Below are positions 2,554 through 8,671 of a stretch of 29,893 bases of DNA, piece by piece. Origin of the DNA: a virus; UHGV virus genome UHGV-0172517. One strand, written 5' to 3'. Each line of letters starts with the position of its first letter. Position 1 is the stretch's first letter. The notes beneath the pieces are model-generated. The model worked only from the letters and a program-made list of their open reading frames with translations. It was not told the origin of the DNA and ran no database searches. Both the position numbers and the translations under genes were made by a program.

Positions 2554-2939
2554 AGCTGATCCTGCCTTTTCCGCCCAGCGTGAACACGTACTGGAGACAC
2601 CCCAACAAAGGGGCGTTTGCTGGTAAGAGCCTGATAAGCGCGGCGGGGCGAAAATTCCAGAGCGCGGCGTGCGCAGCAATAGTTGAGCAGTTACGTCGTC
2701 TGCCGAAACCAACGTCGGCACCTGCTTCAGTGGAGATCGTGTTATTTCCTCCGGATAACCGGATCCGCGATCTGGACAACTATAACAAGGCGCTGTTTGA
2801 CGCCCTGACCCACGCGGGTGTGTGGGAAGACGACAGTCAGGTGAAAAGAATGCTGGTGGAGTGGGGACCGGTTATCCCGGAAGGGAAGGTCGAGATCACT
2901 ATCAGTAAGTACGAGAAAACGGCGGGTGCAGCCGCCTGA
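2550..2939 (+). CDS. rusA: RusA-family Holliday junction resolvase
   Basis: 129 aa; N-terminal LPFPPSVNTYWRH and the DLDNYNKALFDALT acidic motif are typical of RusA; size matches (~120-130 aa). Start overlaps upstream stop. Confidence 0.85.
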   Translation: MKLILPFPPSVNTYWRHPNKGAFAGKSLISAAGRKFQSAACAAIVEQLRRLPKPTSAPASVEIVLFPPDNRIRDLDNYNKALFDALTHAGVWEDDSQVKRMLVEWGPVIPEGKVEITISKYEKTAGAAA

Positions 2940-2958
2940 TCAAGAGGAGAAACGAAGT

Positions 2959-3768
2959 ATGAATAATCTGATGGTCATTGATGGTATTGAAGTTCGTCGT
3001 GATGCTTATGGGCGTTACAGCCTGAACGATCTGCATCGCGCAGCAGTAGCATCTGGTGCAAATGCCAGAACCAAGGAGCCGGGGAAGTTTCTTTCCAGCC
3101 AACAAACTGTTGAGCTTGTTCATGAATTGACCAACACCCAGAATTTGGGTGTTGACCCGGTGAGTGTGATTCATGGGGGAAATGAACGGGGAACTTATGT
3201 CTGCAAGGAACTGGTGTATGCCTATGCAATGTGGATCAGCCCGTCATTCCATCTGAAGGTGATCCGTACTTTCGATATGGTAACCAGCGCACCGGAAAAA
3301 TTATCCGGACAGGCTGCTGACAAGATGCAGGCTGGTGTGATTCTGCTGGACTTTATGCGCCGGGAGTTAAACCTGTCTAACTCATCTGTGCTTGGGGCCT
3401 GTCAGAAACTCCAGGAGGCTGTTGGCTTACCGAATCTGGCACCGCGCTATGCCATTGATGCTCCTGCTGATGCACACGATGGCTCAAGTCGCCCGACACT
3501 GTCACTGAGTGCACTGCTGAAACAGTATGGTATCCGCCTGACGGCTAATCAGGCATATCACCAGATGGTGAAGCTGGGGATCGTCGAGCAGCGCGAACGA
3601 TACAGCCGTACCGCGATTAACAACATCAAAAAATTCTGGTCGCTGACAGCGAAAGGCTGCATGTTCGGCAAGAACATCACCAGTCCCGCAAATCCGCGCG
3701 AGACGCAGCCGCATTTCTTCGAATCCCGATTCCCTGAGCTGTTAAAGCTGCTCGATACCGTTCATTGA
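2959..3768 (+). CDS. KilA-N domain protein (Roi/antirepressor-like)
   Basis: ATG at 2959 preceded by AAGAGGAGA SD; the ORF track's upstream Met at 2926 is unlikely. N-terminal ~100 aa (MVIDGIEVRRDAYGRYSLNDLHRAA…GGNERGTYVCKELVYAYAMWISPSFHLKVIRTFD) fits a KilA-N DNA-binding domain. Confidence 0.8.
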   Translation: MNNLMVIDGIEVRRDAYGRYSLNDLHRAAVASGANARTKEPGKFLSSQQTVELVHELTNTQNLGVDPVSVIHGGNERGTYVCKELVYAYAMWISPSFHLKVIRTFDMVTSAPEKLSGQAADKMQAGVILLDFMRRELNLSNSSVLGACQKLQEAVGLPNLAPRYAIDAPADAHDGSSRPTLSLSALLKQYGIRLTANQAYHQMVKLGIVEQRERYSRTAINNIKKFWSLTAKGCMFGKNITSPANPRETQPHFFESRFPELLKLLDTVH

Positions 3769-3769
3769 G

Positions 3770-4765
3770 GTGACCGTGAGAGCACTACTGACCCCTGAAA
3801 TTGCCCCGCGTATGGGGATCGTATTGTTCAGACCAGGTTCAGAGCTGATGCCCCTGTTTATGCAGGGGCGTGTCCTGCTGGAGCCTGAGCCGGAACGTTA
3901 TTCATCTTTCGCCAGTGGTGCCGTTCCGGCGGCATCACAACCGCTGGCGGATGATCCTGCCGTTCGGGCCGTGTTCCGCAATGAGGCAGTGATCCGTCGT
4001 GCTGGTGGAGTGGAATGTCTTGAAAGCTGGTTACTTCGTGAAAAAGGCTGCCAGTGGCCTCATTCCGACTGGCACAGCGAGAACATGACCACAATGCGAC
4101 ACGCTCCGGGTGCAATCCGTCTGTGCTGGCACTGCGATAACCAGCTGCGCGATCAGTTCACGGAACGGCTGGAATCAATGGCAACGGATAACTGTGCCCG
4201 CTGGGTGTTATCTGTTGTGCGCCGTGATCTCGGTTTTGATGATAGTCACGTTGTGACAATGCCGGAACTGTGCTGGTGGCTGGTTCGTAATGACCTGGCT
4301 GATGCCTTACCGGAAAGTGCAGCCCGTAAGGCACTGAGATTACCGAAGCCTGTTGTGCCGTCTGTCACCCGGGAGAGTGACCTTGTTCCTTCGGTTCCTG
4401 CCACCAGCATTATCCAGGATAAAGCGAAAAAGGTGCTGGCGCTGAAAGTGGATCCAGAGTCGCCGGAGTCTTTTATGTTACGCCCAAAACGTCGCCGCTG
4501 GGTTAATGAAAAGTACACGCGCTGGGTTAAGACACAGCCGTGTGCATGTTGTGGAAAGCCTGCTGATGATCCCCATCACCTGATAGGCCACGGTCAGGGT
4601 GGAATGGGTACAAAAGCGCATGACCTCTTTGTGTTGCCTTTGTGCAGAAAGCATCACGACGAGCTGCATGCGGATACCGTGGCATTTGAAGAGATGTATG
4701 GTTCCCAGCTGGAGCTGATATTTCGTTTTATCGATCGTGCGCTGGCAATAGGCGTACTGGCGTAA
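3770..4765 (+). CDS. DUF968 (YdfU-like) protein with C-terminal HNH-like Cys/His motif
   Basis: 331 aa ORF; C-terminus CACCGKPADDPHHLIGHGQGGMGTKAHDLFVLPLCRKHHDELH carries an HNH-like metal-binding pattern; resembles the Qin prophage YdfU family, which precedes Q. Start codon (GTG 3770 versus internal ATGs) is uncertain. Confidence 0.7.
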   Translation: MTVRALLTPEIAPRMGIVLFRPGSELMPLFMQGRVLLEPEPERYSSFASGAVPAASQPLADDPAVRAVFRNEAVIRRAGGVECLESWLLREKGCQWPHSDWHSENMTTMRHAPGAIRLCWHCDNQLRDQFTERLESMATDNCARWVLSVVRRDLGFDDSHVVTMPELCWWLVRNDLADALPESAARKALRLPKPVVPSVTRESDLVPSVPATSIIQDKAKKVLALKVDPESPESFMLRPKRRRWVNEKYTRWVKTQPCACCGKPADDPHHLIGHGQGGMGTKAHDLFVLPLCRKHHDELHADTVAFEEMYGSQLELIFRFIDRALAIGVLA

Positions 4766-4778
4766 GTGGAGAACGAGC

Positions 4779-5531
4779 ATGAACCTTGAAGCCTTACCAA
4801 AATATTACTCCCCAAAATCTCCAAAATTGAGCGATGACGCACCGGCGACAGGCTCAGGTGGTTTAACGATTACGGATGTGATGGCTGCGCAGGGGATGGT
4901 GCAGTCGAAAGCACCGCTTGGGTTTGCCTTATTCCTGGCAAAAGTTGGTGTTCAGGATCCTCAATTTGCGATTGAAGGTCTGCTCAATTACGCGATGGCA
5001 CTGGATAACCCGACATTGAACAAATTGAGTGAAGAAACCCGGTTACAGATCATCCCTTACCTTGTGAATTTTGCCTTTGCTGATTATTCCAGGTCTGCGG
5101 CAAGTAAGGCTCGCTGTGAGCATTGTGCTGGTACTGGATTTCATAATGTATTGCGCGAAGTGGTGAAACACTCCAGAAGCGGGGAATCTGTTATCAAGGA
5201 AGAGTGGGTGAAGGAACTATGTCAGCATTGTCATGGTAAGGGAGAAGTCAGCACAGCGTGCAGAGGGTGTAAGGGTAAAGGTATTGTCCTGGATGAAAAA
5301 AGGACCCGGCTTCATGGCACGCCTGTTTATAAGATTTGTGGGCGTTGCAATGGAAATCGGTTTAGCCGTTTACCAACCACACTGGCGCGGCATCATGTCC
5401 AGAAGCTGGTACCAGACCTGACGGATTATCAGTGGTACAAAGGATATGCAGATGTCATTGATAAACTGGTGACAAAGTGCTGGCAGGAAGAAGCATATGC
5501 TGAGGCGCAATTAAGAAAAGTGACGAGATAA
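4779..5531 (+). CDS. Q: Late-gene antiterminator Q (lambda Q family, QuuQ-like, with extra Zn-binding CxxC motifs)
   Basis: 250 aa; GGAGA SD 7 nt upstream. N-terminus YSPKSPKLSDD…TDVMAAQGM resembles lambda Q (HSPKSPMMSD…TDVMAAMGM, from memory); multiple CxxC pairs. Sits immediately upstream of the lysis cassette. Confidence 0.8.
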   Translation: MNLEALPKYYSPKSPKLSDDAPATGSGGLTITDVMAAQGMVQSKAPLGFALFLAKVGVQDPQFAIEGLLNYAMALDNPTLNKLSEETRLQIIPYLVNFAFADYSRSAASKARCEHCAGTGFHNVLREVVKHSRSGESVIKEEWVKELCQHCHGKGEVSTACRGCKGKGIVLDEKRTRLHGTPVYKICGRCNGNRFSRLPTTLARHHVQKLVPDLTDYQWYKGYADVIDKLVTKCWQEEAYAEAQLRKVTR

Positions 5532-5559
5532 ATGATTTTCGCCGAAGATGGCGACATGA

Positions 5560-5600
5560 TTCTTGCATTTTTCAAAAAATTTGGTTAGGATTCTCCTAAC
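5560..5600 (+). promoter_or_regulatory. Candidate late promoter (PR'-like) and qut region
   Basis: TTGCAT (-35), 17-bp spacer, TAGGAT (-10) about 30 nt downstream of the Q stop, overlapping a small dyad ttaggattctcctaa. Position mirrors lambda PR'. Confidence 0.35.
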
Positions 5601-5635
5601 GATGGGCTTTGTGTGTCTACCGTTGATAATCTTCA

Positions 5636-5662
5636 AGAAACCGCCACCGAGCGGTTTTTTAT
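5636..5662 (+). terminator. Hairpin plus T-run (tR'-like candidate)
   Basis: gaaaccgc-caccgag-cggtttttt: a 7-bp stem followed by six T residues, ~40-60 nt downstream of the candidate late promoter. Confidence 0.4.
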
Positions 5663-5819
5663 TGATGTCAATTGTGTTTTTAAGGCTCTCCTTCCTTAAA
5701 GTGTGTTGTACAAAAAACTGGCAGCCAGCTACGCTCATTTTGAAAAAGTGACACCCTTCAATGTTTCTTTTGAATGGAATTGCTACCCATAAATCTCTAT
5801 CAAAAACAGGAGAGCATAT

Positions 5820-6062
5820 ATGGTGGATCGTTGTTCTGTTTGTGAGCAGTCATTAAGTTATTCACGAGAAGTTGAACAAGATGGCGTTGAATATAAATCT
5901 TGCCCAAAATGTTCTGCTGATGCCGGAGTGCACGTTTTTTATAAAACAATAGACTTTGGTTATAGGGATATGGGAGACGGAAGGCATATCGTTCAGTCAT
6001 GGTGTCCGGCTTGTCGTTCTGGTGAAAAACCTTCTATACCACCAGCATTTAAATGTTGTTAA
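5820..6062 (+). CDS. Small Cys-rich putative zinc-ribbon protein (moron; function unknown)
   Basis: 80 aa ORF with strong SD AGGAGAG 5 nt before the ATG; CxxC pairs at residues 5/8, 28/31, 62/65 and a terminal CC; AT-rich relative to flanks; followed by its own terminator. Confidence 0.55.
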   Translation: MVDRCSVCEQSLSYSREVEQDGVEYKSCPKCSADAGVHVFYKTIDFGYRDMGDGRHIVQSWCPACRSGEKPSIPPAFKCC

Positions 6063-6079
6063 CTCAATGAATTATAAAA

Positions 6080-6108
6080 AGAGGCTGCCTGTGGGCGGCC
6101 TTTTTTGT
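6080..6108 (+). terminator. Rho-independent terminator downstream of the small Cys-rich ORF
   Basis: aggctgcc-tgtg-ggcggcct, an 8-bp stem with one G-U pair, followed by tttttt. Confidence 0.6.
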
Positions 6109-6193
6109 GCACTACGCAACTTTTGCGACTCAGCGCTATAACCAGCTTCTTTCCCTTCACTCGTTGCACTTCCGATAACCGGAGGTGGGAATT

Positions 6194-6535
6194 ATGAAAA
6201 TGCATAACGATCCTCATTCCTGGTCTGACTTACTTGAATTGTTACAGAGCTGGTGGCGTGGAGACACACCGCTGGGCGCAGTAATTATGTCGATCGTTAT
6301 GGCTGGCTTGCGCATTGCCTATTTTGGCGGTGGTGGTGGCTGGAAGCGAAAAACGCTCGAGATTTTGCTCTGCGGCGCTCTGACGCTGACTTTTGCATCC
6401 GCTCTTGAGTATGTCGGATGGCCTAAATCGCTTTCTGTTGCCATTGGTGGTGGTGTTGGGTTGATCGGTGTCGATGCTATTCGTGGGGCTGCAATGAGAG
6501 TAATCGGTAACAAGTTCGGTGGCTCTAAGGAGTAA
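6194..6535 (+). CDS. Class I (lambda S-type, three-TMD) holin with Met-Lys-Met dual-start motif
   Basis: ORF track starts at GTG 6185; ATG at 6194 (GGAGG SD ~9 nt upstream) then Lys and a second ATG at 6200. Three hydrophobic segments and a charged C-terminus; topology and the MKM motif parallel lambda S107/S105. Immediately upstream of R. Confidence 0.8.
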   Translation: MKMHNDPHSWSDLLELLQSWWRGDTPLGAVIMSIVMAGLRIAYFGGGGGWKRKTLEILLCGALTLTFASALEYVGWPKSLSVAIGGGVGLIGVDAIRGAAMRVIGNKFGGSKE

Positions 6536-6538
6536 TTT

Positions 6539-7015
6539 ATGCAGGTACTAAATTCCCAGCGTAAAGCTTTCCTCGATATGTTGGCGTGGTCAGAAGGAAC
6601 GGATAACGGGCGACAGCCAACCCGCAATCACGGCTACGACGTTATTGTAGGTGGTGAGTTATTCACGGATTACTCCGATCACCCTCGCAAACTTGTCACG
6701 CTAAACCCCAAACTCAAATCAACAGCAGCCGGACGTTACCAGCTTCTTTCCCGTTGGTGGGATGCCTATCGTAAGCAGCTTGGCCTGAAAGACTTCTCTC
6801 CAAAAAGCCAGGACGCTGTTGCACTGCAGCAGATTAAGGAGCGTGGCGCTTTACCGATGATTGATCGCGGTGACATCCGTCAGGCAATCGACCGTTGCAG
6901 CAATATCTGGGCTTCACTGCCGGGCGCTGGTTATGGCCAGTTCGAGCATAAGGCTGACAGCCTGATTGCAAAATTCAAAGAGGCTGGCGGAACGGTCAGA
7001 GAGATTGAGGTATGA
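6539..7015 (+). CDS. R: Endolysin R (lytic transglycosylase)
   Basis: 158 aa; sequence …[57 protein letters not shown]… matches lambda R almost residue for residue as I recall it; AAGGAG SD. Confidence 0.95.
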
Positions 7016-7479
7016 GCAGAGTCACCGCGATTATTTATGCTCTGGTTATCTGCATCATCGTCTGCCTGTCGTGGGCGGTCAATCATTACCGTGATAACGC
7101 CATCGCCTACAAAGAACAGCGTGATAAAAAAGTCAGTGAGCTGAAGCAGGCGACCGCCACCATTACTGACATGCAGATGCGTCAGCGTGATGTTGCTGCG
7201 CTCGATGCAAAATACACGAAGGAGTTAGCTGATGCGAAAGCTGAAAATGATGCTCTTCGGCGCAAGCTTGATAATGGTGGTCGGGTGCTCGTCAAAGGAA
7301 AATGCTCTGTGCCATCCTCAGCCGAAACCTCCAGCGCCTCCGGCATGGGCAATGATGCCACCGTCGAACTCTCTCCAGTTGCTGGACGAAACGTTCTCGG
7401 TATCCGGGACGGAATCATCAGAGACCAGACAGCACTGAGAACGCTTCAGGAATATATCAGGACGCAATGCCTTCGATGA
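7012..7479 (+). CDS. Rz: Spanin inner-membrane subunit Rz (i-spanin)
   Basis: 155 aa; N-terminal [30 protein letters not shown]… and …[30 protein letters not shown] match lambda Rz; the C-terminal third diverges from lambda. ATGA overlap with R. Confidence 0.9.
7232..7438 (+). CDS. Rz1: Spanin outer-membrane lipoprotein subunit Rz1 (o-spanin), embedded in the +1 frame of Rz
   Basis: 68 aa ORF wholly inside Rz; AAGGAG SD 7 nt upstream; [21 protein letters not shown]… carries a lipobox (VVGC) and a Pro-rich mature region ([11 protein letters not shown]), like lambda Rz1. Confidence 0.85.
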
Positions 7480-7970: not shown

Positions 7971-8381
7971 TTAGTGCGGAAATATTTGTGTAGTGTTCTG
8001 AATGTTCTCAGTAAAGAGTAATGAATTATCAAAGGTATAGTAATACCTTTTGTTTTCGTGGATATTTGTAATCCATCTGAAAACCCCTGCTGTAGCAAGA
8101 TTTTTCCTGTATTCGTAAAATGATAACTCTCCTGATTTGAATCCTTTTAAGGTGGCTTCTATAAGGCATTTATTTTTTGAAAATCTTACATTTACAACCT
8201 TACCCTGTCCTTTTATTAAAACCGTATTATCGTTTTCAAGAACAAGATGAATATTCTCTGTAGCTAAATAGTAAATGTAATGTGAGACATTGTGACGTTT
8301 TAGTTCAGAATAAAACCAGTGATAGTTTAAATTATTTCGCACTTTATCGAATATTTGTTTAAAAATGGCAACCTGAGCCAT
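7971..8381 (-). CDS. DUF1398 / YbcV-like moron protein (function unknown)
   Basis: ORF track 7971..8396; the second ATG at 8381 has a better SD (GGAAGG) than the first. AT-rich gene on the opposite strand to all phage genes; position between Rz and terminase matches ybcV in DLP12-type prophages. Confidence 0.6.
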
Positions 8382-8437
8382 TGTGGTACCTTCCATGTGA
8401 TATGAGGGGCGTAGTCTGCACGATTATCTAAATTGCT

Positions 8438-8671
8438 TCAATCTGGTCTGATCTGTTTTCTGAGCAATTCAGTAATGTCACTCTTTTCTTTGTTTGCTTC
8501 AGGAGAAACTCTTTTTTCTGAGCACAGTCTCCGGCGGCAGGCTTCAATGACCCAGGCTGAGAAATTCCCGGACCCTTTTTGATCAAGAGCGATGTTAATT
8601 TGTTCAATCATTTGGTTAGGAAAGCGGATGTTGCGGATTGTTGTTCTGCGGGTTCTGTTCTTCGTTGACAT
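8438..8671 (-). CDS. Ribbon-helix-helix-like small protein (YlcI / DUF3950-like)
   Basis: 77 aa; RNIRFPNQMIEQINIALDQKG…NFSAWVIEACRRRL fits a beta-strand/helix/helix RHH DNA-binding fold; AT-rich; located just upstream (on the minus strand) of the YbcV-like gene and adjacent to cos. Confidence 0.6.
   Translation of the reverse strand: MSTKNRTRRTTIRNIRFPNQMIEQINIALDQKGSGNFSAWVIEACRRRLCSEKRVSPEANKEKSDITELLRKQIRPD

Follow-up and report, generated by a model that had tools for sequence, protein, structure and literature searches.

A conserved, putatively zinc-binding protein encoded behind the late promoter of lambdoid prophages belongs to an uncharacterised family that recurs beside restriction-modification genes

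A small gene in UHGV virus genome UHGV-0172517 (29,893 nucleotides [nt], hereafter the window) encodes an 80-amino-acid, cysteine-rich protein of an uncharacterised family that no source names. The gene (5820..6062, + strand, ATG start; PHROG 7682; RefSeq WP_089438607.1, "hypothetical protein") lies between the antiterminator gene Q and the lysis genes of an Escherichia coli prophage, and five strains among the matches listed carry positions 5540-6200 on their chromosomes at 100% identity. This leader is the site of Shiga toxin (Stx) genes in other phages, and the short transcript made there from the late promoter, PR', is now known as a regulatory RNA. Two features draw attention to the gene: its fixed placement in the PR' leader, and the recurrence of its domain in restriction-modification (R-M), TIR and PUA-HNH contexts. 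We propose that the protein is a DNA-associated zinc module that works in phage-host or phage-phage conflict, a reading to which we give somewhat less than an even chance; we favor it because the fusions and neighborhoods of the domain share DNA and restriction-type conflict.

A conserved gene in an exchangeable cassette

By length alone the open reading frame (ORF) falls within chance, with 72 ORFs of at least 30 amino acids in 5.5 kb. However, its match to PHROG 7682 ("unknown function") spans the whole protein (residues 1-80 on profile positions 1-80 of 80; E = 2.5e-59), and its homologue clusters (n = 20) are 78-80 amino acids long and 55-97% identical. A phmmer search of 1.8 billion representatives returned 113 relatives (50%-identity representatives, E < 1e-3), mostly of 55-100 amino acids. 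In codon alignments, the proportion of synonymous differences (pS) is 0.6-0.85, at or near saturation, against 0.15-0.38 for nonsynonymous differences (pN). Most comparisons are saturated synonymously; among the 34 unsaturated pairs the median ratio of nonsynonymous to synonymous rates (dN/dS) is 0.155, with 0.08-0.18 for the window gene in three prophage pairs and 0.35-0.44 in two Photorhabdus pairs. The gene is real and is under strong purifying selection. The original prediction, made from the letters of the window, had allowed that the ORF might prove non-coding; it is instead conserved in related prophages as a coding sequence.

That prediction also did not recognise the protein, and it remains uncharacterised in Pfam, NCBIfam, PADLOC and PDB. 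No Pfam or NCBIfam model reaches threshold on the window protein, and neither it nor its Clostridial relatives match a PADLOC-DB 2.0 family at E ≤ 0.01. The best match of any kind is PHROG 7682, rather than a known protein. A tblastn search of 50,697 GenBank phage records found no copy of the gene, all known copies being in prophages and IMG/VR contigs, and a search of the literature for the protein accession, the PHROG number or the associated DUFs found nothing.

The ORF is set within a compact unit. A Shine-Dalgarno sequence, AGGAG (5808..5812, + strand), stands 7 nt upstream of the ATG, and its GGAG is unchanged across the aligned leaders of relatives. Past the stop codon, a 13-pair hairpin followed by TTTTTT forms an intrinsic terminator (6076..6107, + strand; -19.6 to -23.6 kcal/mol on folding). 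A consensus terminator scanner missed this hairpin in the window, yet it picked up the homologous hairpins in relatives, nearly all of which have a hairpin and T-run 14-25 nt past the stop. The stems differ in sequence among relatives but keep their pairing through compensatory changes, and in a simple scan 56 of 60 IMG/VR loci had a terminator within 75 nt of the stop. The ORF is 40.3% GC, compared to 47-52% for Q, the holin, endolysin and Rz genes and 54% for the whole window. In all these respects, i.e., the good ribosome-binding site, the dedicated terminator and the higher AT content than the flanks, the first description of the gene was accurate.

Related prophages differ in what they carry at this site. 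The PR' region is matched in 134 E. coli genomes, of which 23 carry the ORF and 111 do not. In strain FHI_NMBU_10, homology to the window stops at 5671, just past a promoter-proximal hairpin, and gives way to a gene, with a terminator of its own, for a 59-amino-acid Cys4 protein whose cysteine pairs are CxxxxC and CxxC (locus L051, 2696-2875). In enterotoxigenic E. coli (ETEC) H10407 and Salmonella phage 118970_sal3, homology stops at 5624 and the same slot is occupied by an 85-amino-acid coiled-coil protein (locus L052, 2643-2900). The gene thus behaves as an exchangeable cassette composed of a ribosome-binding site, an ORF and an intrinsic terminator, and different small ORFs take its place in prophages that share its Q and PR'. 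Under the definition of a moron given in PMC2629481, the gene has the presence/absence or replacement among related phages, the terminator of its own and the distinct base composition, while its own promoter was not found by consensus scan. The gene joins the moron class in the Q-to-lysis slot, and what is new is the uncharacterised protein family that it encodes.

Zinc ligands and distant relatives

The protein has cysteines at positions 5, 8, 28, 31, 62, 65, 79 and 80, i.e., three CxxC pairs and a C-terminal CC. These were seen at the outset and are present in the window protein, but the ligands conserved across the family form a different pattern, Cys4 plus Cys3His, to which only C79 of the CC belongs. 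In the close family, C5, C8, C28, C31 and H38 are invariant and C62, C65 and C79 nearly so, whereas C80 is unconserved. Among 83 diverse members, only C28, P29, C31, C62 and R66 are invariant, with F46, G47, Q59, S60 and C65 above 90%. Of 126 sequences, nearly all keep the Cys4 (CCCC) pattern. On the other hand, 71 of 116 sequences have the complete set of N-terminal CxxC, H38 and C-terminal Cys, 26 have none of the three and 19 are mixed, and the shorter relatives that lack the N-terminal CxxC also lack H38 and the C-terminal Cys. Because these latter ligands are gained and lost as a set, we infer that zinc is bound at two sites, a Cys4 ribbon (C28/C31/C62/C65) common to the whole family and a Cys3His site (C5/C8/H38/C79) that is accessory to it. 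AlphaFold2 models the window protein at a pLDDT of 83 and a homologous domain inside a fusion protein at 95-97.

Profile scans against Pfam-A and NCBIfam (E ≤ 0.1) gave only PF13453, PF25206, TIGR02605 and NF003505. Two of these are sub-threshold zinc ribbons, the FmdB-type TIGR02605 (E = 7.8e-4; 19.5 bits against a cut-off of 31.3) and the TFIIB-type PF13453 (E = 0.017; 14.9 bits against 22). Both cover the first CxxC...CxxC region and so pair C5/C8 with C28/C31, which differs from the pairing suggested by family conservation. We rejected an Ogr/Delta, Com, Lar, DksA/TraR or MqsA-type identity, as none of these families appeared in the scans of the ORF.

The evidence that connects the domain to DNA conflict comes from its distant relatives. 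In Clostridia, Bacteroidales and Lentisphaerae, the domain is encoded directly after a D12-class (Dam-like) methyltransferase gene (M), or after M and a gene for a 430-amino-acid protein (DUF6996/6997/7226) that matches the PADLOC type II restriction enzyme PDLC03513 (E = 3.8e-132). In 29 of 44 metagenomic loci of this subfamily, its neighbor is a D12 methyltransferase, a type II restriction enzyme (R) or both, or it is fused to HNH. With the zinc domain written as ZnR, the gene orders include M-R-ZnR (often with a second, N6_N4 methyltransferase), ZnR-M-R, ZnR-TIR-M-R and M-[ZnR-X-HNH]-M2. Clostridium amazonitimonense and metagenomes have ZnR-TIR pairs, whose TIR protein matches defense candidate PDC-S66, and one phage contig has a short form of the domain immediately before a ParB-methyltransferase gene.

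The ZnR-X-HNH fusion is widespread, with at least 70 clusters of ∼360 amino acids. The fused, putative nuclease consists of the N-terminal zinc module, a PUA-like (ASCH/EVE-like) domain and HNH. One such protein, P0211 from Enterocloster clostridioformis, is found on hundreds of contigs (696 blocks of the contig collection). It belongs to a mobilisable island (locus L165, 1864-7984, all genes on one strand) with the order D12 methyltransferase, TIR, DpnII (PF04556), a 178-amino-acid protein, ZnR-X-HNH, N6_N4 methyltransferase and TIR. In other fusions the domain is joined to HTH_3, Tudor-like DUF3553 or RapA-type domains.

Two further settings were noted among relatives. Photorhabdus has a chromosomal homologue (loci L020-L028 and L032, gene at about 3989-4237) in a conserved islet between a DinG-like helicase plus RidA and SMR transporters plus zwf. 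It adjoins a helix-turn-helix (HTH) gene and a HipA C-terminal fragment, and downstream it has a long perfect hairpin but no classical terminator. In a Firmicutes phage, a PUA-like-HNH protein without the zinc module is encoded between tail fiber-like genes and the holin gene (4001-4834 or 2677-3510 in loci L169-L171); it may be a phage-borne, DNA-modification-dependent nuclease.

Placement behind PR' and predicted expression

In the window, a predicted PR' (5563..5606, + strand) aligns with that of lambda in its -35 element, spacer, -10 element, gap and AACGATGGG. The -35 is TTGCAT (5563-5568) where lambda has TTGACT, the -10 is TAGGAT (5586-5591) where lambda has TAAATT, and both phages have a 17-nt spacer and a 6-nt gap. 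The nonamer AACGATGGG (5598-5606), which we take to be lambda's pause-inducing element, is identical in the two. A candidate tR' follows as a hairpin with a T-run (5638..5660, + strand; ∼+40 to +65 from the inferred start site; -11.9 kcal/mol by RNAfold). It is common to prophages with a different cassette, with homology ending at 5671. In six close relatives (L062, L064, L074, L081, L083 and L085), single-base changes weaken the stem of this hairpin, and the surrounding 65-nt fold drops from -20.6 to between -11.6 and -16.3 kcal/mol; this could raise read-through into the zinc-protein gene. By eye, too, we saw no promoter between tR' and the ORF, and in relatives PR' itself is the only conserved promoter-like element upstream. 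With the extra hairpin at 5638-5660 ahead of the ORF, Q dependence is likelier in the window, where substantial expression should need Q-modified polymerase.

The wider family shows how closely the gene is tied to the late promoter. In every one of ∼80 prophage loci, it has Q/PR' on one side and the lysis genes on the other, and it is encoded on the late strand. These loci (L002-L019 and L022, plus 60 IMG/VR loci) come from Enterobacter, Kosakonia, Atlantibacter, Proteus, Xenorhabdus, Sodalis, Yersinia and Citrobacter and from IMG/VR contigs; broad family alignments were too diverse for locus scans, so narrower alignments were used. The gene accompanies both Q families (PF03589 and PF06530), several Q subtypes and at least five holin/endolysin types. 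In phages with a PF06530 Q, a conserved motif of ∼45 nt, TAACGCGTACGCAAAAACTATCGTAAnCTGTTAAGAGTGG, is found 122-151 nt upstream of the ATG. Stx1a phages have the same motif ahead of stx1A, and phage SfII has it ahead of S; in both it lies past minus-strand cargo that separates it from Q. In a Stx1a phage, a start 6-7 nt after the TAATGT hexamer gives 258 nt to the T-run of the second hairpin, which equals the PR'-tR' spacing mapped by dRNA-seq (differential RNA sequencing) and Term-seq (PMC7547250). This agreement identifies the motif as PR', and it gives substance to the earlier claim that the gene is in the slot of stx: the position downstream of the same element holds stx1AB in Stx1a phages. 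The distance from Q to the ORF varies from 768 to 3583 nt and that from the ORF to the holin from 85 to 2677 nt, whereas the distance from PR' to the ATG is a constant 122-151 nt. Thus, the gene is anchored to PR' and not to the holin.

The Stx-type-Q branch, the larger one of the family, appears to differ from the window in how the gene would be expressed. None of its 26 loci with the PR' motif has a terminator between PR' and the ORF, and neither loci L002 and L005 nor the leader alignment shows anything terminator-like there; SfII and the Stx phages, by contrast, do carry a hairpin past PR'. PR' is constitutively active in lysogens (PMC7547250). With a constitutive promoter and no intervening terminator, the ORF would lie in a Q-independent leader, and in this branch the protein is probably made in lysogens, with the cassette terminator acting as tR'. 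The expectation that the gene is expressed only on late antitermination is therefore plausible for the window, with its tR'-like hairpin and no detected promoter of its own, but most of the family probably does not follow it.

Other leader features were also recorded. All Stx-type-Q leaders have, 35-40 nt upstream of the ATG, a TTGCTA-like box in which T, G, T and A are invariant (columns 125-131 of alignment A4; e.g., about 4960-4966 in L005). It is too near the ATG for a normal promoter and forms no conserved hairpin. A conserved hairpin sequestering the Shine-Dalgarno sequence was rejected, as RNAalifold on 19 leaders gave no consensus structure and no covariation. Stx-type-Q phages have variable minus-strand cargo between Q and PR' (L002, 2732-4809; L005, 3232-4758; L059, 350-2457; L060, 345-1959), and this looks like a defense-gene hotspot splitting the two. 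The cargo includes RelA_SpoT with NA37 (PADLOC PDC-S33-like) and a PDC-S42-like protein; that of Stx1a phages and SfII includes unannotated "hypothetical" genes. We rejected a functional link to this cargo, since the RelA_SpoT/NA37 and PDC-S42-like genes vary independently of the zinc-protein gene, and likewise a coupling to prophage methyltransferases, which belong to three different families and occur in only some carrier prophages.

The neighbors in the window are those of a lambdoid late region. Upstream is Q (4779..5531, + strand; PF03589, E = 9.5e-54; "antitermination protein" in RefSeq), of 250 amino acids compared to 207 for lambda Q, which falls in PF03589 as well by profile search. 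Downstream is a lambda-family holin gene (6194..6535, + strand, RefSeq coordinates; TIGR01594, E = 1.2e-39; PF05106), followed by the endolysin (6539-7015) and Rz (7012-7479) genes. The holin begins ATG-AAA-ATG (Met-Lys-Met, 6194-6205; ATGAAAATG at 6194), the same dual-start arrangement as in the lambda S107/S105 holin/antiholin. Between Rz and the terminase region there is a second low-GC (32-43%) pair of genes, on the minus strand, encoding DUF1398 (7971-8396) and DUF3950 (8438-8671). The pair resembles another inserted cassette in the late region, and in L001, the E. coli prophage that matches best, its place is taken by an HNH endonuclease and a P27-type small terminase. No Rfam family and no tRNA were found anywhere in the window.

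Candidate functions and comparison with known systems

If the conflict reading holds, the gene would encode a small cytoplasmic protein with two zinc ions at its core, in which a Cys3His clasp ties both termini to a Cys4 ribbon, from a cassette set directly behind PR' in the late-operon leader of lambdoid prophages. In the window, polymerase leaving PR' would meet the hairpin at 5638-5660, then the ORF, and then the stronger terminator at 6076-6107, so that a lysogen would have at most leak-through expression before Q acts. In the Stx-type-Q branch, the ORF would lie within the constitutive transcript, and Q would later read through its terminator into the lysis genes. The target of the protein would most likely be DNA or an enzyme that processes DNA, and its role would be to protect the lysogen or to counter restriction.

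Several observations weigh against this proposal. The gene is known from sequence alone. The protein is near neutral (pI 6.05), which is atypical for a DNA binder. The invariant CxxC knuckles and the AlphaFold2 model agree with the zinc-ribbon-like protein that was first predicted, but a fold search in PDB and BFVD found no match to a solved ribbon, so the term "zinc ribbon" describes the motif and the model. The relatives associated with R-M genes form a diverged subfamily (33-50% identity) in which the inter-knuckle loop is different, and their function may not transfer to the phage branch. Other relatives occur in uninformative contexts, downstream of malQ, parB, groEL or mscL, or in the Photorhabdus islet. 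The defense-candidate genes near PR' are on the opposite strand and vary independently, which makes them neighbors and not partners. Expression in the window is also hard to call. A consensus scan found no sigma-70-like promoter of the gene's own on the + strand of 5300-6700, though a weak promoter could escape such a scan. In Stx phages, a similar promoter-proximal hairpin is read through, with the RNA 3' end mapped 258 nt downstream (PMC7547250), which leaves Q dependence in the window uncertain in both directions.

It is tempting to see the protein instead as an anti-restriction or anti-defense factor that mimics or titrates the N-terminal module of the nucleases, or binds their DNA sites. 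We consider this unlikely. The domain is detachable from the PUA-like-HNH nucleases, which occur both with and without it, and in the pairs with TIR a small gene upstream of the TIR gene encodes it, as in an antitoxin-toxin layout. Small zinc-binding phage proteins at leader positions are often host takeover factors. However, the fused nucleases of known organism come from Firmicutes and Lentisphaerae, and no fusion was seen in the Enterobacterales loci examined. An inhibitor made late or in the lysogen cannot shield an incoming genome unless it is packaged, and an inhibitor of its own enzyme would be odd within M-R-ZnR operons, unless it serves as a timer.

We give a similarly low probability to a small nucleic-acid-binding regulator, controller-, Ogr- or Com-like, that tunes the late operon or host genes, possibly through RNA polymerase. 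In DpnII-like operons the domain's gene varies in position (before M-R or after R), as a controller gene does, and the fusions to HTH_3, Tudor-like DUF3553 and RapA-type domains, together with the weak FmdB- and TFIIB-type similarities, point the same way. So does the tight, constant spacing to PR', and there is precedent for a trans-acting PR' leader in the small RNA StxS of Stx phages (PMC7547250). On the other side, 111 of the 134 E. coli prophages that have the same Q and PR' lack the gene, which shows that it is not needed for Q action. We found neither conserved RNA structure nor conserved operator-like repeats in the leader, the protein is not basic, and the Pfam/NCBIfam scans returned none of the Ogr/Delta, Com, Lar or DksA/TraR families.

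A more specific form of the conflict proposal, which we regard as improbable, has the family as a two-zinc, DNA-binding module of a kind not recognised before, with a tie to adenine methylation at GATC (Dam/DpnII-type). The module would be, in Firmicutes and other phyla, an accessory or sensor to DpnII-like R-M systems, TIR effectors and PUA-like-HNH nucleases. In Enterobacterales it would be a methylation-reading lysogen factor, captured by lambdoid prophages as a protein-coding PR'-tR' leader, the counterpart of StxS. The idea arises from the links to DpnII and D12 methyltransferases and from the free-standing form in Enterobacterales, Aeromonadales and Alteromonadales. These are lineages with Dam. 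If it were true, lysogens would produce this factor all the time and use it to exclude or discriminate foreign DNA or to regulate the prophage. Relatives in Pseudoxanthomonas, Dehalococcoidia and high-GC organisms are a poor fit.

A lysis-timing accessory that modulates the holin or endolysin is very improbable: the gene is immediately upstream of the holin in the window, but elsewhere up to 2677 nt and other genes intervene, at least five unrelated holin/endolysin types accompany it, the protein has no transmembrane segment, and relatives exist outside phages. Finally, a chance ORF or decaying remnant, which the bare "hypothetical" annotation and the omission of the gene by PGAP in 5 of 20 E. 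coli records listed might suggest, is effectively refuted by full-length conservation across Enterobacterales, saturated synonymous against low nonsynonymous divergence, a conserved Shine-Dalgarno sequence and terminator, and the 113 family representatives.

What makes the family worth pursuing is its reach. An uncharacterised zinc domain with no Pfam family or structural relative recurs in DpnII-type operons, with TIR and on putative nucleases, and putative modification-dependent nucleases with the zinc module are common in gut Firmicutes. Knowing the domain's target would annotate thousands of "hypothetical" genes, and could reveal a new accessory function of restriction systems or a prophage conflict factor. 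If the leader model proves true, it would be a second use that prophages make of an always-on promoter, with the product present in every lysogen and boosted at induction.

Among the closest known parallels are the stx1AB and stx2AB morons. They share the slot, and the family's Stx-type PR' element also precedes stx1A in Stx1a phages. Like these morons, the window cassette is exchangeable, has a lower GC content than its flanks and ends in its own terminator; unlike them, it has no detected promoter of its own, keeps a fixed distance to PR', and encodes a cytoplasmic 9-kDa, putatively zinc-binding protein and no toxin. In size and motif, the protein recalls P2 Ogr/P4 Delta, Mu Com and Lar, which are also of 60-80 amino acids with CxxC...CxxC and are carried by temperate phages, but its Cys spacing is different and it has the additional predicted Cys3His site. 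Its relatives adjoin M and R genes as the controller (C) proteins of R-M systems do; the window protein has no HTH, so any resemblance is hypothetical and functional only. Compared to the PUA-HNH modification-dependent endonucleases (e.g., EVE-HNH VcaM4I), it lacks both the reader and the nuclease domains. The ZnR-PUA-like-HNH fusions, in turn, are putative nucleases with the architecture of modification-dependent restriction enzymes, whose zinc module goes unmentioned in PMC6765204. Lastly, in Stx-type-Q relatives the gene fills the same stretch from PR' to the first terminator as the lambda 6S RNA and StxS leaders (StxS: PMC7547250). In the window a short hairpin terminator precedes the ORF, whereas the Stx-type-Q leader runs for ∼400 nt and encodes a conserved protein in place of a non-coding RNA.

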